Assembly: GCA_963843375.1 (NCBI GenBank)
Contig: CAWJKT010000011.1
Location: 352,001-416,000 of the forward strand
Source of the DNA: an uncultured Pseudomonadota bacterium
Lineage (GTDB): Bacteria; Oederibacteriota; Muellerivitia; Muellerivitales; Muellerivitaceae
Length of the DNA: 64,000 nt
Direction of reading: 5' to 3'
Below, one piece after another: positions 16 through 29,383 of this stretch (the stretch's first letter is position 1; the number at the start of each line of letters is the position of its first letter). The notes below the pieces were generated by a model. That model did not search any database and was not told where the DNA came from. It saw nothing but the letters and a program-made list of their open reading frames with translations. Both the position numbers and the translations under genes were made by a program.

Positions 16-48
16 ATCAAATTGAGGGCTGGATATAATCATAATGAT
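16..48. promoter_or_regulatory. Tandem ATCA-N3-TGAT boxes (putative upstream activator sequence)
   Basis: ATCAAATTGAG (16-26) and ATCATAATGAT (38-48), 22 bp apart, about 105 bp upstream of the sigma54 motif at 153. Confidence 0.6.
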
Positions 49-152
49 CTGCAACTCGTGACTGAGTCCCGCTAAAAAATTCCTCAACCCCAAAACATCG
101 TTCTTTTTCGAGGCCAGGGAAGAGGTTTGATTTTTCCCTTGAATTTCCGAGA

Positions 153-166
153 GGTATGGAACTTGC
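153..166 (+). promoter_or_regulatory. sigma54 (-24/-12) promoter
   Basis: GGTATGGAACTTGC = GG-N10-GC with TTGC; the identical 14-mer recurs at 8961 and 24267. Confidence 0.75.
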
Positions 167-234
167 CTTAGTTCCTTTCCTGAATTTCATGATTGGATGT
201 GGGATTCAAATAAATATTTTTGGGAAGTAATAAA

Positions 235-1257
235 GTGAAAAAGCTTATCGTAAATTTAGTTGTAATAGCCTCACTTCCAATTGCTTTTGTAGCCGGTTGC
301 GGAAGCAATAACAACAATCCGTCCAGTCCAGGGGGTTCGGCAGCGACTTCAACGAACACCACGACACCCACGAGAACCTTAACGACCGCGACGCCAACGA
401 GTACCGGGACGAACACGGCGACGAAAACCGTTACGTCTACGGCCACGGCTACCGCGACCGTGACACCCTCGGGGACCATCACGCCCGTGGCGACCGCAAC
501 AACGACGAACAGTCCGACCAACACGGCTACCGTTACGGTGACCGCAACCCCGACCAACAGTCCGATGAGCACGGCCACTTATACGGTGACCGCTACCCCG
601 TCAGGAACGGTTACGACGATTGTAACTGCGACGCCCCAAGCCGTCCAAACACCGGTTAATCTTGGATCTACGGTCAGTTACGCTGTCTTGGCTTTCTCCG
701 AGGCCACCAATACCGGCGCCACCACACTCTGTGGGGACCTGGGTTTGTGGTCAGGAACAGCTTTTGGCGCGGGCTACGTGTTTTGTAACGGCGGAATCGA
801 GAACATCACCAATGGGGCCGCAGAAACCGCCCAAGGCGACTTGACCACGGCCATAGGGGATGCCTCGGGAAGGACAACCCCGGCTTTGATTTCCGGTGAT
901 TTGGGTGGCCAAACGCTTTATGCAGGCCTTTATAACTCATCCGGTACGATTGGGATAACGGGTACTCTCACCTTGGATGCCCAGTCAAATCCGAATGCGG
1001 TCTTCATCTTCCAAATCGCGAGCACCCTTTCCAGCGCGGTCAGCAGTCAGGTCATCCTCGCCAATGGAGCGGAAGCCGCCAACATCTTCTGGCAGGTTAG
1101 CACTAATTGCAGCTTGGGTGATTATTCCACCTTTATGGGAACCATCATGACTGGCACAGCGACCACGATTGGTACAGGCGTCGTGTTGGATGGCCGGGCT
1201 TTAGCAAAGTCCGCCGTTACGATGCAGGGTGATGACATCGCCGTTCCCACTCCGTAA
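235..1257 (+). CDS. Lipoprotein with Thr/Pro-rich stalk and C-terminal DUF3494 (ice-binding-like) domain
   Basis: Lipobox FVAGC; long T/P linker; motifs VNLGS..YAVLA, LTLDAQSNPNAVFIFQI, ANIFWQV, GRALA. The GTG at 235 matches the start of the paralog at 9039 (ORF track starts at 220). Confidence 0.88.
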   Translation: MKKLIVNLVVIASLPIAFVAGCGSNNNNPSSPGGSAATSTNTTTPTRTLTTATPTSTGTNTATKTVTSTATATATVTPSGTITPVATATTTNSPTNTATVTVTATPTNSPMSTATYTVTATPSGTVTTIVTATPQAVQTPVNLGSTVSYAVLAFSEATNTGATTLCGDLGLWSGTAFGAGYVFCNGGIENITNGAAETAQGDLTTAIGDASGRTTPALISGDLGGQTLYAGLYNSSGTIGITGTLTLDAQSNPNAVFIFQIASTLSSAVSSQVILANGAEAANIFWQVSTNCSLGDYSTFMGTIMTGTATTIGTGVVLDGRALAKSAVTMQGDDIAVPTP

Positions 1258-1290
1258 GAACTTAGTCCAATAATTGATTTAGTGGCGTAT

Positions 1291-1327
1291 AAAGGCCGGG
1301 AAAAACTCCCGGCCTTTTTTTATTTTT
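1291..1327 (+). terminator. Rho-independent terminator
   Basis: AAAGGCCGGGA-aaaac-TCCCGGCCTTT followed by a T tract. Confidence 0.85.
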
Positions 1328-1344
1328 TGACAAATTTAAGTGAG

Positions 1345-1377
1345 ATCAAAATGAGAGTTGAAAATAATCATTTTGAT
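1345..1377. promoter_or_regulatory. Tandem ATCA-N3-TGAT boxes (putative UAS)
   Basis: ATCAAAATGAG (1345-1355) and ATCATTTTGAT (1367-1377). Confidence 0.7.
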
Positions 1378-1470
1378 TGCCTATCTGTAATGGTGAGCTG
1401 CTGAAGATCCCTTCCGCGCCAAATATTTGTTTTTTTTGAAACTATTGGAGGCATGGACAGTCTTCCTTGA

Positions 1471-1484
1471 GGTATGGAAATTGC
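1471..1484 (+). promoter_or_regulatory. sigma54 promoter
   Basis: GGTATGGAAATTGC, GG-N10-GC, just upstream of the kinase gene. Confidence 0.72.
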
Positions 1485-1501: not shown

Positions 1502-4500
1502 ATGACCACTCAAACCCTCCTCAAGACCGAATCTGTTGAACCGGATTCGGTGGATATCCATCAATTACTTAAAGCCTTGATGGCCCTGAAAAAGGGCGAT
1601 TTTTCTGTGCGTCTTCCGATCGACTGGACCGGAACGGCCGGCAAGATCGCGGACACTTTCAATGATGTGGTTGAGATGAACCAGCACATGGCGATGGAAC
1701 TTCAGCGCTTGTGTCAAGCCGTGGCGAAGGAAGGCAAGATCAACCAGCGGACTCCTCTGGGGGAATTCGGCGGCGCCTGGTCCCAAATGACGGAATCCGT
1801 GAACACCCTTATCGATGAACTGGTTCGTCCCACCAGTGAAATGTCCCGGGTCATCGGCGCCGTGGCCAAGGGGGACCTTTCCCAAGAAGCGGCTTTGGAA
1901 GTGGGCGGACGCCCCCTGGAAGGGGAATTCCTTCAAACGGGCCGTACCATCAACACCATGGTGGATCGGTTGCGGTCCTTCGCTTCCGAAGTCACCCGGG
2001 TTGCGCGCGAAGTAGGAACCGAAGGGAAACTCGGCGGCCAAGCCATTGTTCCAGGGGTCGCGGGCACGTGGAAGGACTTGGCCGATAATGTCAATCTGAT
2101 GGCCAGCAACCTGACGAGTCAGGTTCGTAATATCGCGGACGTCACTCTCTCAGTGGCCCAAGGCGATCTTTCCAAAAAAATCACCGCCGACGTGCGTGGC
2201 GAAGTCCTTGTCCTAAAAGAAACCGTCAACACGATGGTGGACCAACTTCGTTCCTTCGCCTCGGAAGTGAGCCGGGTAGCTCGAGAAGTCGGAACCGAAG
2301 GGAAACTGGGCGGCCAGGCCATTGTTCCGGGAGCGGCCGGAACCTGGAAAGACCTGACCGACAACGTGAATTTCATGGCAAGCAACCTGACGAGCCAGGT
2401 ACGCAATATCGCCGATATCACGACCGCTGTGGCGAACGGCGATTTTTCCAAGAAGATCACTGCCGACGTGCGGGGCGAGTTCCTTCAACTGAAAGAGAAA
2501 GTCAACACGATGGTGGACCAGTTGAGTCTTTTTACCTCGGAGGTGACGCGAGTCGCGCGGGAAGTGGGAACGGAAGGGAAACTGGATAGCCAGGCCATCG
2601 CGCCAGGCGCGGCGGGAACCTGGAAGGAATTAACCGACAACGTCAACTTCATGTCCTCGAATCTGACGAGTCAAGTGCGCAATATCGCCGATATCACGAC
2701 CGCTGTGGCGAACGGCGATTTTTCCAAGAAGATCACTGCCGACGTGCGGGGCGAGTTCCTTCAACTGAAAGAGAAAGTCAACACGATGGTGGACCAGTTG
2801 AGTCTTTTTACCTCGGAGGTGACGCGGGTCGCGCGGGAAGTGGGAACGGAAGGGAAACTGGATAGCCAGGCCATCGCGCCAGGTGCGGCTGGAACCTGGA
2901 AGGAATTAACCGACAACGTCAACTTCATGTCCTCGAATCTGACGAGTCAAGTGCGCAATATCGCCAATATCACGACCGCTGTGGCGAACGGCGATTTTTC
3001 CAAGAAGATCACTGCCGACGTGCGGGGCGAGTTCCTTCAACTGAAAGAGAAAGTCAACACGATGGTGGACCAGTTGAGTCTTTTTACCTCGGAGGTGACG
3101 CGAGTCGCGCGGGAAGTGGGAACGGAAGGGAAACTGGGTGGGCAGGCCATCGCGCCAGGCGCGGCTGGAACCTGGAAAGATCTGACCGACAACGTCAACC
3201 ACATGGCAGCCAACCTAACCGACCAGGTGCGCAGCATCGCTAAGGTGGTCAGCTCCGTAGCCAAGGGGGACCTGAAACAAAAGCTCACGGTCGTGTCCAA
3301 GGGTGAAGTCGCCACTTTGGCCGACACCATCAATATCATGGTGGACCAGCTCAATGCCTTCGCCGCGCAGGTCACCAGCGTGGCCCGAGAAGTCGGCGTG
3401 GAAGGCCGTTTAGGGGGGCAGGCCAACGTGCCGGGAGCGGCTGGAACCTGGAAGGACCTGACGGACAACGTCAACCAACTAGCCGCCAACCTGACGACCC
3501 AGGTACGCGCCATTTCCGAAGTCGTCAGTTCGGTCGCCAGCGGGGACCTGACACGGTCCATCCGCATGGACGCCAGGGGCGAGGTGGAGACTTTAAAAGA
3601 TACCATCAACCAGATGATCGCCAACCTGCGCGGCACTACCCTGAAAAATTCGGAGCAAGTCTGGTTAAAAACGAATTTGGCCCGTTTCACCCTCATGTTG
3701 CAAGGACAGAGAGATTTGTCGACCGTTGCCAAGGCTATCCTTTCAGAACTCAACCAAGTAGTTTCGGCTCAGCACAGCGCCTTTTATATTGCTGACTCCA
3801 AAGAATCGGGCGGGACTCGCTTAAAACTTCTTTCCGGGTTCGCCTACCGTCCCAGGCCAGAACTTCCGCAGGAATTCGGTTTCGGAGAGGGCCTAGTGGG
3901 CCAATGCGCCCAGGAAAAGACCAGGCTTTTATTGAATAATGTTCCTGGCGACTATATCCGTATCAGTTCGGGTTTAGGGGAAGCGAGCCCCCTGAACCTG
4001 GTGGTGTTGCCCGTTCTTTTCGAAGGCAAAATCAAGGGTGTCCTGGAATTGGCTTCTTTTGAGGTGTTCACCCCATCCCATTTGGCTTTTCTGGAACAAC
4101 TGATGGAAAGTATCGGCATCGTCATCAATACCCTGGAAGCGAATTTGCGCACTGAAACCCTTCTGAAGAACCTGCAAAGCCAGCAGGAGGAATTACAAAA
4201 GTCGAACCAAAATTTGGAAGAAAAAGCCGACCAGTTGGCCCTGACCTCCAAGTACAAGACCGAGTTTCTTTCCAATATGTCTCATGAGTTGCGCACACCC
4301 CTCAACAGCATGCTCATCCTTTCCCAGCAATTGGCAGAGGATCCGAAAAACCTTACTCCCAAACAGGTGGAATACGCCCGCACCATCCACGCTTCGGGCG
4401 GCGACTTGCTGCTGTTGATCAACGATATCCTGGACCTTGCCAAGGTGGAATCCGGGACCTTGACGCTGGACGTTATCGACCTGCCTTTTACCGAGATGCG

Positions 4501-6295
4501 TGACCATATGGATCGACTTTTCCGCCACGTGGCCGAGGGTCGCGGGCTTCATTTCGGCATCGAATTCGACCCCAAACTGGGCCTTGAAATCCATACTGAT
4601 TCCAAGAGGCTGGAACAGATCTTGAGAAATCTTCTTTCCAACGCTTTTAAGTTTACGGAAAAAGGGCAGGTCTATCTCAAGGTGGCGCCGGCCAGCGGCG
4701 GTTGGAGTTTCGACCATCCCGTTTTAAGCAAAGCCCAGGAAGTCATTGCTTTTTCTGTCATTGACACAGGGATCGGGATTCCGGAGGACAAGCAAAAGAT
4801 CATCTTCGAGGCTTTCCAACAGGCCGAAAGCGGGACCAGCCGCAAATATGGGGGGACAGGACTGGGGCTGTCGATCAGCCGCGAACTAGCAATGGTTTTG
4901 GGGGGCCAATTGGCTTTGGCCAATAGTCATCCTGGGCGCGGGAGCGCTTTCGTTCTTTATATGCCAAGGAATTATGTCCCGGTCAAGCCCGCTACGGTCA
5001 TTCCCGCCATCGAACCAGAACGATTGCTGGCTCCAAAGCCGCCACACGATCCGGTGCTAACGGAAAGCGATGTGGCTTTAGGTTCCACGAATGAGGTTGC
5101 GGACGACCGAAAAAACATCCAGTCGGGTGACAAAATCCTCCTGATCGTGGAAAAGGACGCGAAATTCGCCCAAATCCTATTGGAGGCGGCCCGCGATAAA
5201 GGTTTCAAAGGGCTTGTCGCATCACGAGGCGATACCGCCTTGCGTTTGGCCAAAGAGTTCCCGGCAAGCGCGGTGACCTTAGATATTCGGCTCCCCGATA
5301 TTGATGGTTGGAGCATTCTTGCCCATTTTAAGAAAGACTTGGCCACGCGCCATATCCCCGTTGAGATTATTTCCGGTGATGGGGACCGGATAAGGGGCCT
5401 AAAGCAGGGAGCATTGGGATACCTGAAGAAGCCCGTTAATAAAGAGGACCTGGACAAGGCTTTTAAGAATATCCATAAATGCCTTGAGTCACCTACCCGA
5501 GAAGTGCTGCTGGTTTGCGGAAAGCAGGACCAACGCAAAAAGCTCAAGGAAATACTGGAATCCGGTGAGATCAAAGTGCATGCCGTTTCCAGCAGCCGTG
5601 AAGCCCTTCCGCTTTTGAAGGAAGGAAACCTGGACTGTGTGGCCCTGGAAGTACCGGATCCAGAGGCTTTCCGGGTGCTCCAAGCCATAAATATCAACCC
5701 TCAATACGGCTATTTACCCCTGATCGTTTATATCAGCGGTGATCTCAATAAAAACGAAGAGGAAGAACTGAGGCGGATCGCCAAGGTTTGCGTCGTTAAG
5801 GAAACCAAGTCCATGGAAGGATTAATGGATGAGGTGATCCTTTTTATCCATCAGGCAGTCTCCAAGCTTCCCGAAGCCAAACGCAACAGTATTGAACAGA
5901 TGCACCGGAGCAACGACATTCTGACCGGCCGAAAGGTGCTAGTCGTGGATGACGACATCCGCAATATTTTTGCCATGACCAGCCTTCTGGAGCACGAGAA
6001 GATGCAAGTCTTATCTGCGGAGAGCGGCAGCGGGGCCATTGAGCTTTTAGAAAAGACTCCAGACATGGACATCGTTCTTATGGACATTATGATGCCGGAA
6101 ATGGACGGTTACGACACCATGCAGGCCATCCGCAAAAAGGAATCCTTCAAATCCCTGCCCATCGTCGCCTTGACCGCTAAGGCCATGAAGGGAGACCGGG
6201 AAAAATGCATCGAGTCTGGGGCCTCGGATTACATCACTAAGCCAGTGGACACAGCCCAGCTACTCGCCCTGATGAGAATATGGTTGAAACGATAG
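1502..6295 (+). CDS. Soluble poly-HAMP/GAF hybrid histidine kinase with three C-terminal receiver(-like) domains (OsaA/Nik1-like)
   Basis: Repeated 92-aa di-HAMP units ([19 protein letters not shown]...[11 protein letters not shown]), GAF region, H-box [11 protein letters not shown] boxes (NAFKFT, DTGIGI, GGTGLGL), final REC LVVDDD...LMDIMMP...ITKP. Confidence 0.95.
2399..3226 (+). repeat. Three near-identical 276-bp tandem repeats (di-HAMP units)
   Basis: Units start at 2399, 2675 and 2951 with nearly identical DNA; more diverged copies flank them. Confidence 0.9.
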
Positions 6296-6305
6296 GAGGA
6301 AAACC

Positions 6306-6908
6306 GTGGTTGAGAATAAAATGCCAGTCAATATTCTTTTAGTAGATGACCAGCCGGCCAATCTATTGGCGCTCGAGGCTGTATTGGAAAGCCTGGGTCA
6401 AAACCTAGTAAGGGCCAATTCCGGGGAAGAGGCTTTAAGGCAGCTGATTCAAAGGGATTTCGCCGTAATTCTTTTGGACGTGCTTATGCCGGGGATAAAT
6501 GGGTTTGAAACAGCGGCCCTTATCCGCCAGCGCGATCGTAACAGCAATATGCCCATCATTTTCCTGACGGCGGGTGGAAAAACCGAGACAGAGATGTTCC
6601 GTGGCTATGCCGTGGGAGCCATCGACTACCTATTGAAGCCCATCCGTCCGGCGGTACTTCGGTCCAAGGTATCGGTTTTGATCGACCTTTACCGCCGGAC
6701 CACGGAAGTGCATCACCTAAAGCAGGAACTCAGCCAAAGAATCCGGGAAATCGAGGGCTTGAACTCGATGTTAAAAACCGAAAATGAATGCCGCAAAAGG
6801 ATTGAGGCGGAATTGGGCCTGTCCAAAGAGGGGTCGAAAAACTTTGATGCCAACTCGGAGGCGAGAGCTCCCAAACCCACGATGGCGGTCGAAGAACAGG
6901 GACGTTAG
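6306..6908 (+). CDS. OsaB-like response regulator (REC + coiled coil)
   Basis: ILLVDDQPANLLALEAVL...AVILLDVLMP...IIFLTA...LLKP; no DNA-binding output; AGGAGG RBS. Confidence 0.9.
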   Translation: MVENKMPVNILLVDDQPANLLALEAVLESLGQNLVRANSGEEALRQLIQRDFAVILLDVLMPGINGFETAALIRQRDRNSNMPIIFLTAGGKTETEMFRGYAVGAIDYLLKPIRPAVLRSKVSVLIDLYRRTTEVHHLKQELSQRIREIEGLNSMLKTENECRKRIEAELGLSKEGSKNFDANSEARAPKPTMAVEEQGR

Positions 6909-6940
6909 CCGAGCGAACCAATGGAAAACTGGAGTAAAAA

Positions 6941-7504
6941 ATGACAAAGGGCAAGGAAGTTAACGTAAATAGGCCACGCGTCAACATTCTTCTAGTGGAT
7001 GACGAACCGGCAAACCTGCTGGCCCTTGAGGCGGTATTGGAATGTCTGGGCCAAAACTTAGTGCGGGCTAATTCTGGGGAAGAGGCTTTAAGGCAGCTAA
7101 TTGAAAAGGATTTCGCCGTCATTCTTTTGGACGCGTTGATGCCAATGATGAACGGGTTTGAAACGGCCGCCCTGATACGCCAGCGCGACCTCAGCAGCCA
7201 TATGCCGATCATTTTCCTGACGGCGGGTGGAAAAACCGAGACGGAAATGTTCCAAGCCTATGCAGTGGGAGCGATTGACTATCTGTTGAAACCTTTCGTT
7301 CCCGCAGTGCTGCGTTCCAAGGTTTCGGTTTTGATCGAACTTTACCGCCGAACCGAGGAAGCGCGCCGGCTGAACGATGAATTAGGCCGCAAGGTCAAGG
7401 AACTTGTAATTGTGAACTTGAAATTGGAGATCGAAAATCGAAAACACGATCGGATGATGGAGAAACTTCACCGATCTGAAGAAGGATTGAAGAAACTCAA
7501 CTGA
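6941..7504 (+). CDS. Second OsaB-like response regulator (paralog)
   Basis: REC domain nearly identical to 6306-6908, divergent coiled-coil tail. Confidence 0.9.
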   Translation: MTKGKEVNVNRPRVNILLVDDEPANLLALEAVLECLGQNLVRANSGEEALRQLIEKDFAVILLDALMPMMNGFETAALIRQRDLSSHMPIIFLTAGGKTETEMFQAYAVGAIDYLLKPFVPAVLRSKVSVLIELYRRTEEARRLNDELGRKVKELVIVNLKLEIENRKHDRMMEKLHRSEEGLKKLN

Positions 7505-7829: not shown

Positions 7830-8690
7830 ATGAATCGAAAATATTTTTTTGGAACATCTTCATCCCCTGGAGTTCTTGTCCTAGCGATTAAAAATTATTT
7901 CAAGATCGAAGGATCTCAACAGGCGGCCGTGTTCGCTTATTACGCTTTTTTTTCTCTCTTTCCATTAGTTATCCTGGCCGTGATGATATCCTCGTTTTTT
8001 GCGGACCAGGACCGCGCGGCCCGAGAGGTCATTGGATATTTCAAAAATTACGCGCCCCTGGACGCCCAATTAAACCAGGATGTTTTCGACGTCATCACCG
8101 GAGTGGTCAAGGAGCGGGGAAAAGCGACGATCATCGTCCCTTTAATCTTTTTTTGGGGGGCCTTCCGTTTTTTCAACGTGCTGATTCGCGCGGTCAATCG
8201 GGCCTGGGGTACCCGGGCGGGAAAATGGTGGCGCCTGCCCCTGAAGAACATCCTTTTGCTCGCGATCACAGGTCTGACCATCCTGCTGGGTCTGGGGACA
8301 CCGGTGGTTGCCAGGCTGGCTAGGCACTGGTTTTTTTCCACGTACGAATTTGTTTCGTGGATGTATGAAGCGGCTGTCGTTATCGGCCCCTTGCTTGCTC
8401 TTTTTCTAGGATTAAGCCTTCTTTACAAGCTCGCACCCTGCCGGCCCACACGCTTTGCTGAAGTGTGGATAGCCGCGCTGGCGGCTGCGGCGGCATTGTG
8501 CGTACTGGAAAGTTTGTTTGTCATTTACCTTCGAATCTTCTCCAAGTTCAACCTGGTTTACGGGGCGTTTGGCGGCATGATGTCCCTACTCATGTGGATT
8601 TATCTTTCGGGATGCATCATTGTCCTGGGAGCCTGCTTGTCCGCCGCCCAAGCCAAGGTAAAAGCGCATTGGTGGAGTCGCAACTTTTGA
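7830..8690 (+). CDS. YihY/virulence factor BrkB family membrane protein
   Basis: AAVFAYYAFFSLFPL, VYGAFGGMMSLLMWIYLSG; multiple TM segments. Confidence 0.88.
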   Translation: MNRKYFFGTSSSPGVLVLAIKNYFKIEGSQQAAVFAYYAFFSLFPLVILAVMISSFFADQDRAAREVIGYFKNYAPLDAQLNQDVFDVITGVVKERGKATIIVPLIFFWGAFRFFNVLIRAVNRAWGTRAGKWWRLPLKNILLLAITGLTILLGLGTPVVARLARHWFFSTYEFVSWMYEAAVVIGPLLALFLGLSLLYKLAPCRPTRFAEVWIAALAAAAALCVLESLFVIYLRIFSKFNLVYGAFGGMMSLLMWIYLSGCIIVLGACLSAAQAKVKAHWWSRNF

Positions 8691-8727: not shown

Positions 8728-8854
8728 ATCAAAATGAGGCCCCAATCCCCGTTTTGATCTTCATCAGACCGCTTCATTTAAAACAATTTTTCAAGGCACC
8801 CGGAGCTTTTCCGCGGCTTTCCGACCGAATTAAATTCATTCGAATCATTTTGAT
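8728..8854. promoter_or_regulatory. ATCA-N3-TGAT boxes (putative UAS)
   Basis: ATCAAAATGAG (8728-8738), CCCGTTTTGAT (8748-8758), ATCATTTTGAT (8844-8854). Confidence 0.6.
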
Positions 8855-8960: not shown

Positions 8961-8974
8961 GGTATGGAACTTGC
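8961..8974 (+). promoter_or_regulatory. sigma54 promoter
   Basis: GGTATGGAACTTGC. Confidence 0.75.
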
Positions 8975-9821: not shown

Positions 9822-9908
9822 GTTTTCGGAATTGATTGGGCGGCATAGGCCGAGAGGGTTTCTCAGCCTCTGCTGCATTTATTTGCAGGAATTTGAAAGG
9901 AAAAAGAA

Positions 9909-10349: not shown

Positions 10350-10582
10350 CCGATAGAAAGCACCTGAATACCGGCGCCTATTAAGGGGCCGGGTTTGTAG
10401 CGGATGAAGCGGGTGACGATAAGGTCTCATCATTATCACAAGCCAGCTCAGTCCGTTTTGGATTTTAGGAACCTCGCGGTTCGGCGGGCAGCCGGTTAGG
10501 GTTTAAGAGAATTCATGTCCGTTAGGAATTGCCAATGAATTTTTCTAATTCCAAACACTGATCCCGTCTCCAGGAACCAACA

Positions 10583-18000: not shown

Positions 18001-21000
18001 CTCGCTGGTAGGCCTCATCAGTGGATCGGAGAAGATGATCCGGTTGGCGAGTTTTTGGAAAAGCTGGGCCTCATCGAGGTCGATTCCCAAGTGGTGAAGC
18101 CGAGCTTTCGACTGGGTCCAAACGAGGTTGGAGGTACGTTCGAAAGCGGAAGAGTTATGGTATTTTTCCGCCAGTGCGAGTATTGCGACGCCCGACCCCG
18201 CCACCAGGGTGGTGAAGCAGACTTTGGCGGTTGCGCCCGGCTGGATCCTCACCTTCACCCGAAGACTCAGGATAGGATCCAGAACCGCGCCTGCCGTGTT
18301 GGAAAGGGACCGGCCGTCCATGACGGAGATGGGTCTGCGGAGCGTCCGGCCCCGGCCGATGAATTTCGAGCGGTCGCTTTCATACTCCACTTCGCCAAAG
18401 GTCTCCCCGTTGGAGGAGAGAACCTGGGCCATAAAGATCCGCTCCTCGCCCGCGGATCGGGCCCGGCGGGTCGCCGCCAGCGCCGACAATTCGGGAAGAA
18501 ATTCGGTATGAACAAAAAGGTTCGAGAATGCGGGATGGGCAAGGTCGGCGTCGGGTGAAGCCAGCACCACTTCCGAATAGGACGTGATCTCGATTTCCCG
18601 GACTTCGGTACCCGGATTGGTGAGGGAGAGCCGCCGAAGCTCGGCATCGTCCTCTGTGGAAACGAGGACTTCCATGTCGGTGGCAAGGGAGTGGTCCACC
18701 CGCGAGATCCGTGCCCGGTCCTCCGAAAAGACGACCTGAGATTGAAGCGGATCGACCAGGGTTGGCTGATAAGCCGCCGACCAAACCTCTCCGTTATGAA
18801 GATCTCTCAAAAAAAAGTAGCTCCCATAATGGTCCCGGGTCACATCCTCCCGCCACCGGGTGACCGCGCGATTTTTCCAAAGGCTGTACCCGGAGCCGAC
18901 GGCGGTGATCATGACTGCGTAGCGGCCATTAGACAGCAAATGGGAACTGGGGATAGGATGGTGGGGTGAGCGGATTTTGCGGAGAATGGAAGGAACGAGT
19001 TCCTGAACCTTTTGGATATCCACTTCTTTCACTTGGTCCCGGGCTGCTCCCAGGTTGCGGGGAGTTCTTTCCTGAAGAAGGAGTTCGCCGGCTTGGACGA
19101 GGGCGTCCATGTGAAAGCGCCGCCGTAAGATACCCTGGTGGACCACATTCGAAAGGCTCAGAAGCGACATGCCTTGATGATGGGCCATATAGGAACGTAC
19201 CAGGGCGAAGTTCTCCTTCTCTCTGAGCCGGGAGGGGGTATAGTCCAGGGATTCGTAAAAACCGAATGTTCCCAGGGCCCCCATTTGTTCCAATCTTTTA
19301 AAGTTTTGGAGCGCCTCCCGCGCCTCCACCATGGCCGCCAAAGCAGTCGCGTAGGGAGCCACCACCAAGTCCTTGGAGAGCCCACGCTTCAACCCAAGCC
19401 CTGGAATTCCAAAGGTGGAGTATTGATATGTGAGATCCAGGTCGCGGACATTGTATCCGGATTCTGAGACGCCCCAAGGCACGCCTGTGAAATTCCCGTA
19501 ATGAATTTGCCGACGGACTACCCGATGACAGGTCTGGTCCAGAAGGCTACCCTCAGGTGTTGTCATGATCAAGGATGGCATCAAATATTCGAACATGGAA
19601 CCGGACCAAGAAACCAGCATGGCATCGCCCTTGTCAGCTACCAATCCCCTGCCCAGCCGGAACCAATGGGAAACGGGCACATCCCCCTTAATAATTGCCA
19701 CATAGCTGGCCAGCCGGGCTTCTGAGGCCAGCAGGTCGTAACAACCCTCGTCCAACTGATCCTCTGCCACCCGGTATCCGATGGAAAAAAGCTTCTTTCC
19801 AGGATTCAACAAAAAGCCGAATTCCATTCTGTTAAATAAATCGCTGGCAAGTCCGGCGATTTCCTCCAACCGGTTCAACATTCCGCGCCCGTTTCGGGCC
19901 GAAAGGTCCAGGGCTTCGGCAACCCGATCGAAATAAACCTCGTCCACAGGGGACCGGGACTTGGATTGGCGGATGGATTCGAAAGAAGCCAGCGCCTTTT
20001 CACAATGACTAGGCGTTTCGGCCAGTGTTAGTCCATCCGTGAGGAGACTTTGGATGGAGGAGCGAAATTCCTCCATCTTCACGGAAAGGCCTGGTTGGGT
20101 TTCGTTACCGGGGTGGGCGCCATCCGAAAGGAAATAGACCCAGGGGAACCATTTGCGAAAGTCCCTTATATGGCTTTTAACGCTGTCGGCGACCTGGTCG
20201 GCCCAAGCCGTCGTTTCACTTTTTTCCTGGGCGCGTTGTTCGGCGGCGAAGGAATGAGCTGTGTCCTTTAGTGTTTCGGCGCGGAGGTCTAGTTGATCCC
20301 AATAGGCGGCCCATTTCGAAAGGGAGTCAAAATGGGCCGCTCCGTCCAGTTGTTCCTCGAAAAGGCCAATTTCTTTTTGAAGCTGGCTTAAGGGGGTGAC
20401 CGAGGTCCGGCCATGATGGGGAAGCTCCTGGACCGACCGTTTCAACAGAATCACCGAGTCCTTGATCCCCATCAGGTCGGAGGTTGAAAAAAGCGGCCGA
20501 TGGGCCAAGTCCCGGCAAGCCTGAGATAAAGTGAGGAGATGGCCGGCTAAGTTGCCGCTATCCACCGTGGAAATATATTTGGGTTCCAACGCCTGGAGGG
20601 TCTGGGTGTTATACCAATTGAAAAAATGTCCCCGGAAACGCGGAAGTTTTTCCAGGCTTTTCAGGGCCAATTCCAGGCGGTCAGCCATTTCCCCCAATCC
20701 ACACCAACCGAAATCATGGGCCGTCACCACGGACAAGAGGAATAGTCCGAAATTCGTAGGGGAACCGCGATGGGCAATGACCGGCTCCGGGTCTTCCTGA
20801 AAATTATCGGGAGGCAGGAAGTTGTCTTCAGAGGAGGCAAAATGACTGAAAAACCACCAAGTTCGCCGGCCGTAGAGCCTGAGTTCCCCTGTTTCCTCTG
20901 AACTTAATGGGAGGCTTTCTCCTCTGGACTCGGGCAGGCTGATCCAACGGGCGAACCAGGGAGCAGATAACCATAAGAGGGCAAAGGGGGCGCAGAGGGG

Positions 21001-23906
21001 CAAGACCCGGGGATTCAACAATGCTGTTAAGCCGGCCGCCAACATCCCGATAGAAATAGACCCCTTCATTCTTCGACCAAAACTGGAAATTGAAAGGGAT
21101 GAGTTGAAATTAGCCTTCGCGGCCGTGACCCATTCCAGAAAATTCCGGTGGCTGACGAACAATCGGTAAAGTGTTCGAGTGATTGCGTCTAAGTGCATCC
21201 AGGCCCGATTGGCGACAAGAAGCAGATTGACGATGAATTGTCCTCCACCCAGGAGAAAATTCCTTCGGATTTCCACTAGTTGGTCCCTCCAATGCAGGGA
21301 AGTTCTCCAAAAAGCCAAGTCCCCCAAAAAAGGCATCAGGGAGGGAAGGGCAATCGCCGAAAGAGCCAAGCCGACCCAGACCGTCCGATCAACCTGGGGA
21401 AGGCAAAAGGCGGAAATTAATAGGCCGATGGTGCCGAGGGGGGAAAGACTCCGTCGCAGGTTGTCGGCCATTTTCCACCGAGCGAGGGTGGAGAGGGATG
21501 TCCCCGCTCGCCCGAAGATCCAGGGCAGAAGCTGCCAGTCCCCCCGAATCCAACGGTGGCTCCGGGAGGTTGAGATTTCCGCATGGGAGGGGAACTCCTC
21601 GAAAAATTCCAAGTCACTGGCGTATCCACATCGGGCGAAAGAACCCTCGAAAAGATCGTGGCTCAATAAACGGTTTTCCGGGATCCGGCCTTCCAGAGAT
21701 TTTTCATAGGCATCCACGTCATAGATTCCCTTTCCGGTAAAGCTGCCTTCGCCGAACAAGTCTTGATACACGTCGGAGACGGCCGAAGCGTAGGGGTCAA
21801 TTCCGCATTCACCCGAAAAGAGCCTCTGGAAAATGGATTTCTCATTGCGTCCCGGTAAAAAGGCAGTTACTCGAGGTTGTAAAATCCCATAGCCCTCCAC
21901 CACCTTCTTTAGCTGGGGATCCAAACGGGCCCGGTGGAGGGGGTGGGCCAAAATCCCCACCAATTGATTAACGACCCCCGGCGGAAGTTTCGTGTCGGCG
22001 TCCAGGGTAATGACATAACGAACCCCATTAGGGGCCTCAACAACAGAGCCGTCCGGGTTGAAGTAGCTGGTGTCGACCGCTTTCCTCAGAAGACGGTTGA
22101 ATTCATGGAGTTTCCCGCGTTTGCGTTCCCAACCCATCCATTTTCCCTCCAATGGATTCCAGAGCCTTTTGCGGTGAAAGAAGAAAAAACGCGGATTTCC
22201 ATCTGGCGCCGGCCCGTGTTTTTGGTTGAGTGCGGCCACTCCTTGAACGGCCGAGGATATTTTTTTGAGGTCTTCTGGAGAAATTTCCAAATCCGAGTCG
22301 GGCCAATCGGTGAGAAGGGCGAAAAGGACATCTCCCTCGGAATTAGAAAGATAGTGAACCTCCAATTTTTCCAACTGTTCGGGGATATCCAACTCATCCT
22401 CCAGCAGGGTTGGAACAACCACAAAGGTACGAAAATTTGAAGGGAGGCCTTCTGGAAATTCCAGTCGGGACAAATGCCTAGGAGGAACCATCCGTGTGAC
22501 AAAACGATTGACCCAATCCACGGCTAGATCGGAAGCGGGGAAAAAACCAAAAGCCAGCAAAAGAAGGAGTATGAAAATAGGCAGGGCGGGATTCAAGAGG
22601 ACGGCGATCCCGAGAAGGACAAACGTTATCAATAGAAGGTTTCCCATATAAGTGACGGTTGGATGGTCCGTGCAAAGCCGCAGGAAGCGGTCTTTAACCG
22701 GAACCCGGAAGCCGACCTCTTTTTCAAAAGACCTGCGGCCTTCCGAAAAAAGATAATAGCCGGGGTCCCGAAACCTTTCGGAAAATCCGCTTTGACCGGA
22801 CCCTCCTTCGGCTTTTTGGACCGCCCAGCGGGCGATTTCCAACTCGCTTTTTTTAGAGCCTTTGGCAATTTCCTCTATTGCGGCACGGTAACTGTTGCGG
22901 GTCATGAAATCCATCTTTTGGAAATTGGGGTGTTCCGCCAGGATTTCCTGGACAAGGCTGACCCGCTCGAAGAATTCCTGCCAATCGAAGGTCGGTCATG
23001 GAACGGAAACTGGTGATCATATTCCGGACGGTGCTGTTGTTGGCGGCCTGCCGGCTGTGGACGGAAGCCACCAGTTCCTCAGCGGTCGTTTTCTTGGCGG
23101 CCAACCTTTCGTTCAACCACCGAACCAAAGGTGTTCCCGTGGGGTCCTGGTAACGCAAGCGCTGGATAAGCTGAACCAGGAATGCCGGATGGGCGGATTG
23201 TCGCTCCAATTTCGACGCAGAGGGACGCCCGGCTGCGGCGGATTCCTCGATAAGCCCTAAAAGCTCGTCCACGAAGGTATCCGCGTCCTGCCGGGCTTCC
23301 TGGGAGGTAACCAGGTAAACGGCTATTCGGCGGAGGTTATCGACCATCACTACACGCAATGTAATGGCCAGGGCCCAGAGCTCTCCGATGGTGAGCGGCT
23401 GGACCTGCTGGTAGGAGCGGACAAAATGAATCAGGGATTCGGGATCGAAACGGCTATCCGTGTGGGCCACGTAAGCCCAAGCCAATCCGTAAACGCGCGG
23501 GATACCACTTCAAGAAACCCTCGGAAAGCTTGGGGAGTTCGTTGTAAAAATCGTGGGGCAGAAATTTTTTAATATCCCGAAGCTGTTCTTTCACCACGTA
23601 AAAGGAATCGATCAACCATTCGCCCGCGGGATGGATCGGCTTCTTTTTTTCGGCCTCCTGAGTCAGATACCGGAAGGATTCCTGGAGTATTTTTTGGTTT
23701 TCACGCAAACGGGGAGTCAGCGGGACTCCGGATTTTGGATCATCAGTTACCGTTTGGGCCACTGCCAGTGATCGGGCATGCTGGTCGAAGCGCTCAACAC
23801 TGAAGAGTTCGGAGCGAATGGGATCTTCCATGGGCCTGGAGACGAGGAAAGAGAAGGAAAGCAGGGAATTAAACTGGTGTTTGAGATTTAAAAAGGTTTG
23901 ATTCAT
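15079..23906 (-). CDS. ndvB: Cyclic beta-1,2-glucan synthase/phosphorylase (NdvB/Cgs; GT84 + GH94), interrupted by five +1 frameshifts
   Basis: Joined fragments show [100 protein letters not shown]. Removing 5 bases from 8828 nt gives 2941 codons. Confidence 0.9.
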
Positions 23907-24086: not shown

Positions 24087-24100
24087 GCAAGAAACAAGCC
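24087..24100 (-). promoter_or_regulatory. sigma54 promoter (leftward, toward ndvB)
   Basis: Minus strand GGCTTGTTTCTTGC; one mismatch from the 14308-14321 site. Confidence 0.7.
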
Positions 24101-24162: not shown

Positions 24163-24193
24163 ATCAAAATGAGAGCTGGCGGATCATTTTGAT
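24163..24193. promoter_or_regulatory. Tandem ATCA-N3-TGAT boxes between divergent sigma54 promoters
   Basis: ATCAAAATGAG (24163-24173) and ATCATTTTGAT (24183-24193). Confidence 0.72.
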
Positions 24194-24266: not shown

Positions 24267-24280
24267 GGTATGGAACTTGC
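24267..24280 (+). promoter_or_regulatory. sigma54 promoter (rightward)
   Basis: GGTATGGAACTTGC. Confidence 0.75.
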
Positions 24281-24334: not shown

Positions 24335-24610
24335 ATGATTTATTCTTTTCAATTACATAATTTGGTTTGGTTTTTGTTGGTAGGCGGTTTGGCTGGTTGG
24401 CTGGCAAGTAGTTTGGTCATGGGCGGAGGCATGGGAATTATCGCTGATATCGCCGTAGGGGTTGCTGGGGCACTTGTCGGCGGGATTTTGGCCGATTCCT
24501 TCAACTGGAACATCTATGGTTTTTGGGGTGTGTTAGGTGTTTCGATTTTGGGCGCCATGATCTTGATCGTGCTGTTCCGTGGACTTTCCGGCAGGTGGCG
24601 CAGGGCTTAA
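24335..24610 (+). CDS. GlsB/YeaQ/YmgE (transglycosylase-associated) stress membrane protein
   Basis: LLVGGLAGWLAS...G.IADIAVGVAGALVGG...SILGAMIL. Confidence 0.9.
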   Translation: MIYSFQLHNLVWFLLVGGLAGWLASSLVMGGGMGIIADIAVGVAGALVGGILADSFNWNIYGFWGVLGVSILGAMILIVLFRGLSGRWRRA

Positions 24611-24730
24611 TGAGTTTTGAAGTTCGGTGAAGAAAATTCATGGAATCCTGGAACAACATGGTTTTGGATGGCCTCAGGTTGTAAAAAACGAGCGAAATTA
24701 ATCGTCCGTTAGAAAAAGTTTTAGAACTGA

Positions 24731-24760
24731 AGCCGCTTTCCGACGGGAAGCGGTTTTTTT
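24731..24760 (+). terminator. Rho-independent terminator
   Basis: AGCCGCTTTCC-gac-GGGAAGCGGTT followed by a T tract. Confidence 0.75.
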
Positions 24761-24805
24761 ATTCGGGCCGGTTATTCATCGGGTATCGTCCCGGGGGAGG
24801 AGCGC

Positions 24806-25447
24806 GTGATGAAATGGCGGATTTTGATTTTGTCGACCATTGTTGGGTTTCAGGGCCCGGTATGGATCCCCGGGGCCCTCGCTTCGACAACGAAAACCAA
24901 GACCAGCAAGCCCATTCGGGATTTTATGTCCGGAAGCCAGCTTTGGATCGAGGGCAATTCCTCGGTGCGTCGATACTACCTCACCGCCGAAAAAATTTCG
25001 GCCAAAAGTGATTTGAACGGGATTTCGGAGACGAAAGCCTTGATGGACTTGATCCTCAACCGCAAGGGCCACCATCTGGTGGTGACCATGCCGGTGAAAA
25101 ACCTGAAGTCCGGCGATCCCAACATGGACCAGAACGCCTATGACAAGTTGAAGTCCAAGGAGTTTTCCGACATTGTTTTTACTCTGGGTGATTACGTGGT
25201 AAAGGCTTATCCTCACAGTCTTACCACCTATGCTCTGCTGGTATTCGGCAAGCTAAGGGTTGCGGGTGTCGAAAAGGACGTTGTTTTGGAGCCGACGATG
25301 GTCATCGGCAGGAACGGTATTCGGATTTACGGCACCCAAGACGTCTATCAGAAAGATTACGGTATCTCGCCCTATAGCGTGGCCTTGGTCATGACCACAG
25401 ATGACAAGGTCGTGGTTCATTACATGATCGCGCTGGGGCCGAAATGA
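24806..25447 (+). CDS. YceI-family secreted protein
   Basis: Signal peptide; SQLWIEGNSS, V..LKSG...MD..AY..LK..EF..I.F, GKL.VAGV.K.V. Confidence 0.75.
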   Translation: MMKWRILILSTIVGFQGPVWIPGALASTTKTKTSKPIRDFMSGSQLWIEGNSSVRRYYLTAEKISAKSDLNGISETKALMDLILNRKGHHLVVTMPVKNLKSGDPNMDQNAYDKLKSKEFSDIVFTLGDYVVKAYPHSLTTYALLVFGKLRVAGVEKDVVLEPTMVIGRNGIRIYGTQDVYQKDYGISPYSVALVMTTDDKVVVHYMIALGPK

Positions 25448-25559
25448 TAAAAAAAGAAATCAAGTCATTGGCGCGAACCCGACAACCCAATAACAATATG
25501 AATTTCAACTATATTTCGACGGGGGTACTAATCCTATTTGTTCTTCTCGCTTCCTTGAA

Positions 25560-26822
25560 ATGCTCGGGCCAAAAGAACGCGGGCCACGCCATCCCGGTTC
25601 CGAATCATATCGAAACACATTGAGCTCCCTAAAACCGCTTATTTCGGGAAAAAAAACCAGGCCATGGGAGGGCGAGAAGCTTTATTTTAAAGGAAACGAT
25701 TTTTTTAAAGACGTTTTAAACGCCATCCGTCTCTCCAAAAACAGCGTAGATTTTGAAGTTTATATTTATGAAAAGGGTATTTTGGGTAACCGAGTTGCTT
25801 CTGCATTAATTCAGGCCGCCCGTCGGGGGGTAAAAGTGCGTCTTTTGGTGGATGGAATTGGATCGCCCGATTGCGTCTCCGATTATGGTGAAATGTTTAG
25901 AAAAAGTAGGGTGCGATTCAGGGTTTACCGCCACCTTCCCCATTTTTTCAACTTGTTTTCCCGACCATTCGCTTTTTTGTATACCGGAAAAGCCCTTCAC
26001 CGTCTTCGGATTCTATGGTTCCGAATGAATCGCCGGGACCATCGTAAACTGTTCATGGTGGACCGGGAACGGATCTGGTTGGGAGGCTTCAATGTTTCGG
26101 ACGAGCACCTGGAGTCTGTAGCCGGTAAAAAAGCCTGGCGGGACACGGGAATGCGCCTGTCAGGTGTTCGGGACAAGGCATTCCGGCTGGCATTTAATAC
26201 GGCCTGGCACGATAAGGTTCACCGGCGTCTTTGGAGGTTTTACCGTGGCAAGTTAATCGCCTGGTTGTCCCGAAAGTCCGATTCTCATTCTATTCAAATC
26301 AACGCCACTCGCAGGCTCCGAAAGCGGTTCCACAAGGAACTGCTAGGTCGTTTGAGATCGGTTCGACGGCGGATTTGGGTCACAACGCCTTATTTCATTC
26401 CCGCCCTCCCCGTGTTTCGAGCTTTGCTAAGAGCGTCCCTTCAGGGTTGCGATGTGCGTTTGGTTCTTCCCGAGAAATCGGATATTCCGTTCGTTCGTTG
26501 GGCTTCCATGACTTTTTTTGCGCCGCTTCTGAAGGCGGGATGCCGAATATTCGAATACCACAAGAGCATCTTGCACGCGAAAACCCTTTTAGTGGATGAC
26601 TGGTCCCTGTTAGGGTCAAGCAACTTCAATCATCGTAGTTTTTTGTTCGACTTGGAGGTGGACGTTGTCCCGCAGAAGCCGGCGTCCCTGAAAGCATTGG
26701 AGCGGCAGTATGCTTTCGATTACAGGCAAAGCCGGGAAATAATTTTTCCGGATTTGAATCTCAGGCCCTATTGGGACCGGTTTTTAACTTGGCTTTTTTT
26801 TCGCCTGCGGCATTGGCTTTAA
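25560..26822 (+). CDS. Cardiolipin synthase (ClsB-like phospholipase D)
   Basis: Two HKD motifs (HRKLFMVD, HAKTLLVD), WRDT, TPYFIP, GSSNF..RS; no N-terminal TM; start uncertain. Confidence 0.88.
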   Translation: MLGPKERGPRHPGSESYRNTLSSLKPLISGKKTRPWEGEKLYFKGNDFFKDVLNAIRLSKNSVDFEVYIYEKGILGNRVASALIQAARRGVKVRLLVDGIGSPDCVSDYGEMFRKSRVRFRVYRHLPHFFNLFSRPFAFLYTGKALHRLRILWFRMNRRDHRKLFMVDRERIWLGGFNVSDEHLESVAGKKAWRDTGMRLSGVRDKAFRLAFNTAWHDKVHRRLWRFYRGKLIAWLSRKSDSHSIQINATRRLRKRFHKELLGRLRSVRRRIWVTTPYFIPALPVFRALLRASLQGCDVRLVLPEKSDIPFVRWASMTFFAPLLKAGCRIFEYHKSILHAKTLLVDDWSLLGSSNFNHRSFLFDLEVDVVPQKPASLKALERQYAFDYRQSREIIFPDLNLRPYWDRFLTWLFFRLRHWL

Positions 26823-26856: not shown

Positions 26857-26897
26857 ATCAAAATGATTTTTAAAAACCGATTTCAGATCATATTGAT
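26857..26897. promoter_or_regulatory. Tandem ATCA-N3-TGAT boxes (30-bp spacing)
   Basis: ATCAAAATGAT (26857-26867) and ATCATATTGAT (26887-26897); no clean sigma54 site found nearby. Confidence 0.5.
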
Positions 26898-27115
26898 AGA
26901 GCTCGGAGTATTTACTTTTAATAATTTTTAACTCGGCTTGTATTGGCCTATTAACGAACTCATACTGAACTTGATCGAAGATTTTTTAAATTTTCACTAA
27001 AAATTTTTTCAACATTATCAAGTAATGGGTGGCATCCAAATCTTCGGAGGAAACGAACCTGGAAAAAAACAGGATTCAGCGACAAAGTAATACTCACGTC
27101 CTAATCTAGTTTCGG

Positions 27116-27152
27116 TAGGGCGGGTGCCTTGAAACACCCGCTCTATTTTTTT
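27116..27152 (+). terminator. Intrinsic terminator located in the 5' region of the next gene
   Basis: TAGGGCGGGTG-ccttgaaa-CACCCGCTCTA plus T7, ending about 45 nt before ATG 27197. Confidence 0.7.
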
Positions 27153-27196
27153 GAAAAAAATCATTTAATAAAAGAAAAGGCCGCCGGGGAAAGTCG

Positions 27197-28294
27197 ATGG
27201 GGATTAACCGAAATAGTTTTGGATTCTATATCATTTGTTTGGTTGTTTTGACCGGAACACCCGCCCTCAGTTTAGCCGATGATGGGAACATCATTGTTTT
27301 GGATTGCACAAAATCGGGCGGGGTCCCTGATTTAACGAGCCAATTACCGACGGTGTATGTGGCACGCAATCATTTCGATCCCTCTCGATTTTCTGAGAAC
27401 GGTGAAATATCCAAGGCCGATTTTTCCAATCTCGCCCGAACAGGATTAAAAATTCCTAAAGTCGCCATCCGTTTTAAGATCAGGAAAAATGACGAGGTGG
27501 ATGTTTATATCGTCACTTCGGTCCGGATGGACACCTTTGAGCAGGCGACCGCCACCGCGATCGCTCCGCTACAATGGGTTACCGATCCCATTAACTTTGT
27601 CACCTCAAACTTTTCCCAGGCCACCAGCCCCGTGACGACAACGAGCCAACCGATTACATTATCCATCGTGAAAACGGCGCGATTCCTCCTTAATGAACAA
27701 CAAAGACCAACCTCTTTGGAATCGGGCCGTGACGCGAAGGCTTCTTCTGTTTTTGGGGTTACTTTCAAGGCGGCGACGCTCCCGCTGGGTCCGGAGGAAA
27801 AACTTCCACCCAAAAATATTTATTATTATTATCGGCAAAGATATAAATTGAAGTTTGATAACGCCATCGTAAGCCTGTCGTTTCAGGACCAAAACGGGAA
27901 CCTGGAGGATGTGGCGACTATCATTACAGGCCCATCTGATAATTGGTTTCTCACGGCGGGGGGGCCCATCTTAGCCTACAATCCCGACACGAATGGTTTT
28001 GGCGGAAATGCCACGGGACTTTACCTGGGTTTGAATTGGACCCCCAATGATATTTTTGACCCCAACGCGAGGCTCCTCATTGTGAATTTACTGGATGTGA
28101 ATACAACCAACCCCACTTCGGCCATCGGATTAGTGGGTCTCGGGATGGGTTTTCCGAAAACGAGCCATTTTATCCCTTTGTCGACATTATCGGTCACTGA
28201 AGTCTTGGCCTACAACCTGACCCTGTCTAAATTTCAATTTATGACCATGATCAACTACGACGTAACCGATATTTTGCAGTTATTAAAATTATGA
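27197..28294 (+). CDS. Secreted hypothetical protein
   Basis: 365-aa ORF with signal peptide; beta-rich C-terminus; no family recognised. Confidence 0.7.
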   Translation: MGINRNSFGFYIICLVVLTGTPALSLADDGNIIVLDCTKSGGVPDLTSQLPTVYVARNHFDPSRFSENGEISKADFSNLARTGLKIPKVAIRFKIRKNDEVDVYIVTSVRMDTFEQATATAIAPLQWVTDPINFVTSNFSQATSPVTTTSQPITLSIVKTARFLLNEQQRPTSLESGRDAKASSVFGVTFKAATLPLGPEEKLPPKNIYYYYRQRYKLKFDNAIVSLSFQDQNGNLEDVATIITGPSDNWFLTAGGPILAYNPDTNGFGGNATGLYLGLNWTPNDIFDPNARLLIVNLLDVNTTNPTSAIGLVGLGMGFPKTSHFIPLSTLSVTEVLAYNLTLSKFQFMTMINYDVTDILQLLKL

Positions 28295-28340
28295 TCAGAT
28301 CCGGTAACCCGTCGATTTTGTAATAAAGGTGAGAACCAGT

Positions 28341-29135
28341 CTAGCCACGAAGGCTTTTCACGGTATATTTTTTCGCCATTGGATGGGTTGTTTGAATGAG
28401 TTGGTTTCGGCCTTTTGCCTTGGCGTCATAAAGGGCCCGGTCCGACAAGGCAATTAGTTGCCGGTAATTGAAGCCTGAGCTCTCGTAATTGGTCGCGGCT
28501 CCCAGGCTAACCGTTAGTGGGAAACGCCTCTGGCGGCAGATGAAAACTTGTCCTTGCGTCTTCTTGCGGATGCGTTCCGCCACTTTCCGCACCTCTTCTT
28601 TGTTGCAATCGGGAAGAATCACCAGAAACTCCTCGCCTCCATAGCGGACCGCCAAGTCCCGCGCACGGATGCATTTTTTCAGTAGGGCGGCGAAACACTC
28701 CAAGACATGATTTCCATAAGGATGCCCGCAAGCGTCGTTGATTCTTTTGAAATGATCCAAATCCATCATCAGGCAGGAGATCGGCTGATGGTTGGTGCAG
28801 TGTTTACGGAATTCAATCTTGAATTTTTCGTGCAGGAACCGGTGGTTTCCCAAGCCGGTGAGAGGGTCGGTGGAGAGTTCCCGGGTTAAGCGCCGGTTTT
28901 TACTCGTCATGGAATCGGTGCGGCGGCCCAGAAAAAAACCGAAAGTAGAAAAAAACAGGCTGGCAGCGGAAAGGATAAAAATGAAGAAAAGCAAATGTCT
29001 CTGCAACGCTTTGGCGATGAAGTCGGGGAGCTCCAGTGCGTGATGAGGGGAAAACCAAAGAAGGAGCAGCCCACTCAAGGGAGCCCACAAGCCCAGTAGT
29101 AAGCCGATAATGGTGTAGAGAAAAATCTTTTTCAT
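28341..29135 (-). CDS. Membrane-bound diguanylate cyclase (GGDEF)
   Basis: Two TMs, DPLTGLGN, DLDHFKRIND..GH..G, RARD I-site, RYGGEEF; ATG 29135 preferred over the track start at 29249. Confidence 0.92.
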   Translation of the reverse strand: MKKIFLYTIIGLLLGLWAPLSGLLLLWFSPHHALELPDFIAKALQRHLLFFIFILSAASLFFSTFGFFLGRRTDSMTSKNRRLTRELSTDPLTGLGNHRFLHEKFKIEFRKHCTNHQPISCLMMDLDHFKRINDACGHPYGNHVLECFAALLKKCIRARDLAVRYGGEEFLVILPDCNKEEVRKVAERIRKKTQGQVFICRQRRFPLTVSLGAATNYESSGFNYRQLIALSDRALYDAKAKGRNQLIQTTHPMAKKYTVKSLRG

Positions 29136-29244
29136 CGATGAACTTATAATAGTAAGACTAATGTTGGGTAATAGAAACGGTGGAACAAAATCTCTCATCG
29201 GGGACCACTCACTTTGTGAATGGGGTGTGATAAAACAACGACAG

Positions 29245-29276
29245 CTCAAAATGATAGGCCTTCAAATCATTTTGCC
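29245..29276. promoter_or_regulatory. Tandem ATCA-N3-TGAT-like boxes (putative UAS)
   Basis: CTCAAAATGAT (29245-29255) and ATCATTTTGCC (29266-29276). Confidence 0.6.
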
Positions 29277-29369
29277 ACTCGTACCGATTTCCTGTTTTTT
29301 TCAAAATACACTCGAAAAATATTTTTCATACGGGCGAGCCTTTTTGGCGCCCGAATCCTCCATAAGGTG

Positions 29370-29383
29370 GGCATGATACTTGC
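29370..29383 (+). promoter_or_regulatory. sigma54 promoter
   Basis: GGCATGATACTTGC. Confidence 0.72.

Follow-up and report, generated by a model that had tools for sequence, protein, structure and literature searches.

The 64,000-nt stretch of DNA analysed here (G000 C11:352001-416000; hereafter the window) carries a series of genes whose upstream regions share paired 11-bp boxes of the form ATCA-WWW-TGAT (W being A or T) and sigma54-type -24/-12 motifs of the form GG-N10-GC. A preliminary description of this DNA had listed 15 boxes and eight motifs, and had proposed that a single activator reads the boxes. Checked against the letters, all 15 boxes are present at the positions given: seven match the pattern exactly, six have one mismatch, the box at 29266 has two and that at 8748 has three. 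The eight motifs are also present, those at 153, 8961 and 24267 being identical to each other, but the two minus-strand positions had been given as low ends, their GG standing at 14321 and 24100. Each motif has a plausible gene start downstream. Six pairs lie in positions 1-30000 and none in 30001-64000; local shuffles of the first 30 kb yield no pair in 49 of 50 trials, so that pairs there are commoner than chance allows.

The first pair (16..48; boxes at 16 and 38, spacing 22) stands ahead of the motif GGTATGGAACTTGC (153..166, +), behind which the first gene encodes an ice-binding-like (PF11999) protein with a Thr-rich linker (235..1257, +; this and the following families are Pfam assignments). 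The second pair (1345..1377, spacing 22) and the motif at 1471..1484 (+) precede genes for a poly-HAMP/GAF hybrid histidine kinase and two receiver proteins (1502..7504, +), which may be OsaA/OsaB-like; a BrkB/YihY-family membrane protein (7830..8690, +) is predicted to belong to the same operon. The third pair (8728..8758, spacing 20) has a degenerate second box and is followed by a single perfect box (8844..8854) and by the motif at 8961..8974 (+), with ice-binding-like, LysM, AI-2E transporter and DUF4403 genes (9039..13336, +), putatively co-transcribed, behind it.

Two further pairs have a promoter to either side. That at 14387..14419 (spacing 22) lies between the minus-strand motif GGCTCGTTTCTTGC (14308..14321, GG at 14321), which precedes genes for two small proteins of 104 and 119 residues without notable Pfam family (13546..14240, -), and the motif at 14492..14505 (+), which precedes the gene for a 132-residue protein with an apparent signal peptide and no Pfam family (14542..14940, +). 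The pair at 24163..24193 (spacing 20) faces, on one side, the minus-strand motif GGCTTGTTTCTTGC (24087..24100, GG at 24100) and a GH94/glycoamylase gene (15079..23906, -), presumably an NdvB-like cyclic beta-1,2-glucan synthase and, on the other, the motif at 24267..24280 (+) with genes for a transglycosylase-associated protein, a YceI-like protein and a cardiolipin-synthase-like PLD protein (24335..26822, +). The sixth pair (29245..29276, spacing 21) and its motif (29370..29383, +) precede, as first gene, one for a very basic 39-residue peptide without Pfam family (29433..29552, +); two unassigned proteins, two DUF5670 small membrane proteins and a rhodanese (29618..32010, +) may share its transcript. 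In all cases the direct tie to a promoter extends to the first gene only, operon extents being predicted.

Taken together, the paired boxes define a single geometry. They had been described as tandem sites; paired they are, but as an oriented inverted repeat rather than a plain tandem, with the consensus ATCAAAA(T/C)GA(T/G)-N8-11-(A/C)TC(A/G)TTTTGAT and 19-22 bp from start to start. The spacing had been put at two to three helical turns: 20-22 bp corresponds to two, and three turns apply only to an orphan pair at 26857..26897, spaced 30 bp. A distance of 60-110 bp from pair to motif likewise held for most, the gaps to GG being 104, 93, 72, 73 and 93 bp on the plus strand and 65 and 62 bp on the minus strand, but not for the 8728/8748 pair, which stands 202 bp from its GG; the single box at 8844 is 106 bp from the same GG.

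An enrichment of the paired box near sigma54 motifs across the genome, for which the preliminary description had proposed a test, is found on held-out DNA. The 12 paired window boxes alone served to train a matrix, with which the remainder of the genome was scanned; a pair was called linked if a sigma54 motif lay 30-220 bp from it. Outside the window there are 30 pairs at 19-22 bp, 17 of them linked, versus five of 65 at control spacings (12-40 bp outside 19-22; p 5e-7), against a background rate of 4.3%. Genome-wide, 36 pairs contrast with 1-7 in ten shuffles. Orientation is selective as well, in that 17 of 30 inward pairs outside the window are linked and none of 17 outward pairs; the two direct-repeat readings score in between (11/23 and 6/17) because each box is itself near-palindromic.

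All 17 linked pairs fall in four regions: C11:339-351k, which continues the window's own island, C4:433-457k, C19:17-33k, and C9:36.5k and 72-73k. The island perceived in the window is thus one of four, on four contigs. Together with those of the window, the linked pairs number 23, with a promoter within 150 bp at 21 and on both sides at eight of those; the predicted regulon comprises about 31 promoters. Distances from pair centre to the -24 element cluster near 59, 70, 80, 89, 99, 109 and 120 bp. A Rayleigh test at 10.5 bp detects this phasing in the present genome (p 6e-4, n=29), in its relatives (p 1.3e-3, n=45) and in the high-GC loci introduced below (p <1e-4, n=34), values that are optimistic because the sets share paralogous promoters. 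The boxes are almost certainly a real sigma54 enhancer.

The genome holds one copy of rpoN, on which the original proposal depends, and nine or ten genes for bacterial enhancer-binding proteins (bEBPs). None of the latter was found on the window's contig, C11, and the activator would therefore act in trans. The expectation of one activator encoded outside the window is right as to place; as to number, three paralogous bEBPs with XylR_N and V4R domains are the likely readers (C4:435123-436751, C19:12266-13894 and C9:34219-35886). Each sits in one of the three regulon regions other than that of the window. The two paralogues that were scanned have the architecture XylR_N, V4R, AAA+ and Fis-HTH, XylR_N scoring above the Pfam cut-off and V4R just under it (28.7 and 30.2 versus 31). 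The G(A/S)FTGA loop is intact in 118 of 120 homologues, and a fold search with the activator's predicted model gave DmpR as the best match, while the MobR equivalog cut-off is not reached (315 of 999), nor is that of NorR. Single perfect boxes stand 139 bp before one activator gene (C9:34080) and 246 bp before another (C4:434877), where they could serve autoregulation. Among plasmid records the whole activator found no match at 1e-100, and the matches listed included only distant ones to the sensor domain, at 29-35%.

The distribution of the pair follows that of the activator. Within the family, FCPU426, the sensor domain occurs in 18 of 30 genomes, and in none of 68 others of the phylum. Run on 29 of the 30, the strict pair pattern turned up in 14 of the 17 that have the activator versus one of the 12 that lack it (p 1e-4, overstated by kinship); the motif is conserved in related genomes, and conserved with its putative reader. 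It was found in none of 16 genomes outside the family. A pirin domain is present in all 18 activator genomes versus three of the 12 others. A search of genome contigs with the activator retrieved 13 loci, all 78-88% identical and none labelled Planctomycete.

A second lineage provides a further test of this association. Activator homologues of about 70% identity include three labelled Planctomycetota by NCBI, and the sensor domain of six such homologues was used to choose 79 metagenome loci by the activator alone; these are mostly of 60-68% GC, and most are without taxon label. The window-trained matrix finds 78 pairs in them, 41 at exactly 21 bp and 60 at 19-22 bp, 42 of the 60 with a sigma54 motif, versus 0 or 1 pair in 20 shuffles. 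Of the 63 high-GC loci with sufficient flanking sequence, 38 have a pair in the 800 bp upstream of the activator, versus one of 114 control windows inside or after the activator gene; such counts overstate independence, because near-duplicates are included and two of the 63 are FCPU426 genome loci. More distant V4R homologues have no pair upstream (0/7). In the tree, the FCPU426 activators form one clade nested in the high-GC diversity, and a topology keeping the high-GC rows together is rejected (p-AU, from the approximately unbiased test, 6e-4; 19 chosen rows, the group having been named after the first tree was seen). This nesting, together with the rejection, makes a transfer of the activator into FCPU426 plausible. 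The pair is very probably read by this V4R clade, a view to which its place upstream of the activator in a second lineage adds weight.

In a simplified view, one activator dimer would bind each 11-bp box, and two dimers, two helical turns apart on one face of the DNA, would assemble into the active oligomer. A signal held in the V4R pocket would relieve repression, and the AAA+ domain would then open, at the predicted start sites, the closed sigma54 complexes that stand in helical phase with the pair, to one side of it or to both. Two boxes two turns apart fit the case of DmpR, which is described as active in the form of a tetramer of two dimers (PMC7264223).

The sensor domain offers clues to the nature of such a signal. 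It matches MopR, PoxR and DmpR at E 1e-17 to 1e-13 and, in MopR numbering taken from the sensor alignment, retains the zinc site C135/E158/C161/C169 in 120 of 120 homologues and the pocket Trp in 118. The phenol-binding His is replaced (Tyr in 58, Leu in 52, Phe in six and Met in three of the 120), F132 has become Gly, Y176 Ala and Y161 mostly Leu or Phe, and 110 of the 120 carry an extra cysteine, Cys139. In the accessible text on MopR, this His holds the phenol hydroxyl, H106Y turns the protein to benzenes, and F132A and Y176F widen the cavity (10.1101/2021.01.17.427014). From these features we infer a pocket that is larger and less polar than in the phenol sensors. The signal might be a bulky apolar or redox-active aromatic of the quinone or polyphenol type, although we would put this at little better than one chance in three; redox of the thiols or zinc is the next candidate, and a less likely one.

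What the enhancer controls can be judged from the genes behind it. The window contributes ice-binding-like proteins, the poly-HAMP hybrid kinase with its two receivers, BrkB, LysM, AI-2E, GH94, YceI, PLD, DUF5670, the transglycosylase-associated protein and the 39-residue peptide. The other islands add pirin, Fe/Mn and Cu/Zn superoxide dismutases (SODs), ferritin/Dps-like proteins, a long catalase, DoxX, BON, DUF2934 and PPK2, as well as glycogen and pentose-phosphate enzymes. Downstream of the C9:36572 pair, about 30 kb of same-strand genes (C9:37287-66944; L020, L021) encode HPr, glucan phosphorylase, GlgX, acetate kinase, the long catalase, dehydrogenases, a P-type ATPase, PPK2, PGI and PGM. 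At C19:24768 (L019), a pair with a minus-strand sigma54 motif stands ahead of a DUF7665/ThiF operon, which would join the regulon. Nine long high-GC loci (125 proteins scanned) hold pirin, universal stress protein (USP), GroEL/ES, S30EA, AI-2E, GH94, GGDEF, PLD, SOD, ferritin-like and ice-binding families, and pirin, AI-2E, GH94, GGDEF, PLD, ice-binding, SOD and ferritin-like proteins are common to both lineages.

Many of these families mark the RpoS and SigB regulons, and a broad protective gene set behind pair-linked promoters suggests that the enhancer probably drives a regulon of the general-stress type, a label that depends on these marker families. As a whole, the best explanation, which we hold with good confidence, is that the activators of the one-component XylR_N/V4R clade use the pair as their upstream activating site, and that such a regulon is under its control. 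The chief competitor keeps the activator and the enhancer and differs over the purpose: a specific response for the detoxification of aromatics or phenolics (pirin, DoxX, SOD), whose islands other stress genes joined later. The most conserved target is indeed a pirin with a quercetinase domain, whose gene diverges from that of the activator in 19 of the 44 high-GC loci that have sufficient flank, and the Tyr that replaces His in 58 homologues is that of toluene-sensing XylR. However, Pfam scans of the island and locus proteins reveal no aromatic catabolic operon, phenol hydroxylase or ring-cleavage family, and the pairs directly precede envelope, glycogen, signalling and small-protein operons in classes that recur in the second lineage. 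We consider the detoxification response unlikely, at about one chance in four.

Several observations, beyond the kinship and shared ancestry already noted, weigh against an enhancer read by the V4R clade. No sigma54 motif stands within 240 bp of the orphan pair in either direction, and 13 of the 30 held-out pairs are likewise without one, most of them low-scoring, although the orphan pair and that at C9:82682 are strong. The strict Escherichia coli IHF consensus is absent between every pair and its promoter (an IHF site being common at such promoters, not required), in a genome with five HU/IHF-like genes. None of the 15 low-GC loci, mostly FCPU426, has a pair directly before the activator. 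Three genomes have the activator without a strict pair match, namely G072 (96% complete), G008 (65%) and G011, the last with a looser match; conversely, G022 (93%) has the pair and the pirin, yet no activator was found in its genome or locus. The orphan pair itself, whose two boxes are perfect and spaced 30 bp, could act as a decoy or in repression, or could be an enhancer that has decayed.

G022 could be read in favour of a different sigma54 activator, an NtrC-like bEBP with a REC domain, which might receive its signal from the poly-HAMP kinase and receivers of the island, with the V4R protein a passenger. Six or seven other bEBPs are encoded in the genome, and the window's hybrid kinase and two receivers are without DNA-binding domains. 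Yet each of the 30 family genomes carries 3-12 bEBPs, others than the V4R proteins occurring even in the 11 that lack both motif and activator, whereas the pair accompanies the V4R gene in the second lineage too, often just upstream of it; this makes the REC-type reader improbable. Fainter still is the case for a factor that is not a bEBP, such as the Crp/Fnr protein of the C4 island, modulating rather than driving these promoters. The FNR box is built of the half-sites TTGAT and ATCAA, but here their order is opposite to TTGAT-N4-ATCAA, no perfect FNR box was found in the islands (17 one-mismatch matches there, of 243 genome-wide), sigma54 requires a bEBP, and the Crp/Fnr gene is itself preceded by a sigma54 promoter linked to a pair. 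The position of that gene (C4:437890-438585; L016:12890-13585) suggests a second regulatory tier. That the repeats are functionless remnants of duplicated promoter cassettes, as the 75-85% identity of the 5' regions of three window promoters and the paralogous ice-binding genes might imply, is largely refuted by conservation and scarcely credible, since little or nothing besides the boxes aligns in the other four blocks and since the spacers vary whereas the boxes, their spacing and their phase persist in both lineages.

By architecture the system belongs to the XylR/DmpR subfamily. With XylR, DmpR, MopR and PoxR it shares the XylR_N-V4R-AAA+-Fis-HTH arrangement, the GAFTGA loop, the zinc site and the pocket Trp and, with XylR and DmpR, two upstream sites (described in part in PMC3900584 and PMC7264223). 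The divergent layout of activator and target, as in XylR/DmpR, is seen in the high-GC loci. Two features of the phenol sensors fail, for the pocket His that DmpR, MopR and PoxR possess has been exchanged, and many dispersed stress operons take the place of one catabolic operon; unlike in XylR/DmpR, moreover, the enhancer is often two-way and comes down to 41-65 bp from the promoter. The NorR enhancer, GT-N7-AC, also consists of multiple 11-bp inverted boxes upstream of a sigma54 promoter, three of them essential in the available account (PMC2831303). Here there are two, with outer bases AT..AT/AG in place of GT..AC, and the activator has a V4R domain where NorR has a nitric oxide-binding GAF domain, so a reading of the boxes as NorR sites was rejected.

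The resemblance to general stress regulons lies in the targets, and the difference in the promoters. Long catalase, Dps/ferritin, SODs, BON, DUF5670, transglycosylase-associated protein, cardiolipin synthase and glycogen enzymes are classes shared with the RpoS, SigB and EcfG-PhyR regulons. RpoS and SigB are sigma70-family factors, whereas the promoters here are of sigma54 type behind a one-component activator. The EcfG system, too, is reported to run on a sigma70-family factor (PMC8103513, in the text available). We do not claim that sigma54 has replaced RpoS, an idea that was dropped in view of two short sigma70 factors without assignment (C10:187096 and C11:31559; RpoS model score 301 versus a cut-off of 379); two full-length RpoD-like genes lie at C8:102580-104454 and C6:117754-119577. 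For Planctomycetia, predicted sigma54 promoters are reported to be enriched before USP, MscS and chaperone genes (PMC12316311), and USP and GroEL/ES also occur near the high-GC loci; the accessible portion of that paper names neither an enhancer motif nor a V4R activator.

Other features of the window deserve mention. The 39-residue peptide recurs at 87% identity in a same-genus genome and at 64-72% in three high-GC activator loci (copies at L156:19228, L116:10633, L129:708 and L146:428), and found only weak matches in the Atlas (<=0.86, low recognition); binding to ribosomes or DNA is a guess at its role. The two DUF5670 proteins stand in tandem at 31122-31442 (+), below the 90-residue cut-off for open reading frames (ORFs). 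The GH94 gene is split over four ORFs in different frames, breaks for which assembly indels are as likely a cause as decay because similar ones occur in COX and G6PD genes of other islands. An ORF with a homing-endonuclease-associated repeat (PF18780) lies at 58496-58924, and an Rfam search found no match in the window or in four island loci.

To our knowledge, the known general stress responses all run on sigma70-family factors, and the known XylR/DmpR proteins each run one catabolic operon. A literature search, confined largely to openly available text, found no description of the motif or the regulon. More tentatively, and at somewhat less than even odds, sigma54 and a one-component V4R sensor with a remodelled pocket might constitute a fourth general-stress architecture, a master switch that acts through a two-way, phased enhancer, was acquired by one FCPU426 family from a Planctomycetota-like lineage, and responds to an endogenous metabolite of stress or to the redox state of thiols rather than to a pollutant. 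Most likely, the activator is a relative of the phenol-sensing activators that was rewired from pollutant breakdown to general stress defence. The system would join both worlds, combining, in two uncultured lineages, a broad stress regulon with a defined operator and a named clade of activators. It presents a sensor pocket of new shape and, for the stress genes predicted to be sigma54-linked in Planctomycetia, a likely activator.

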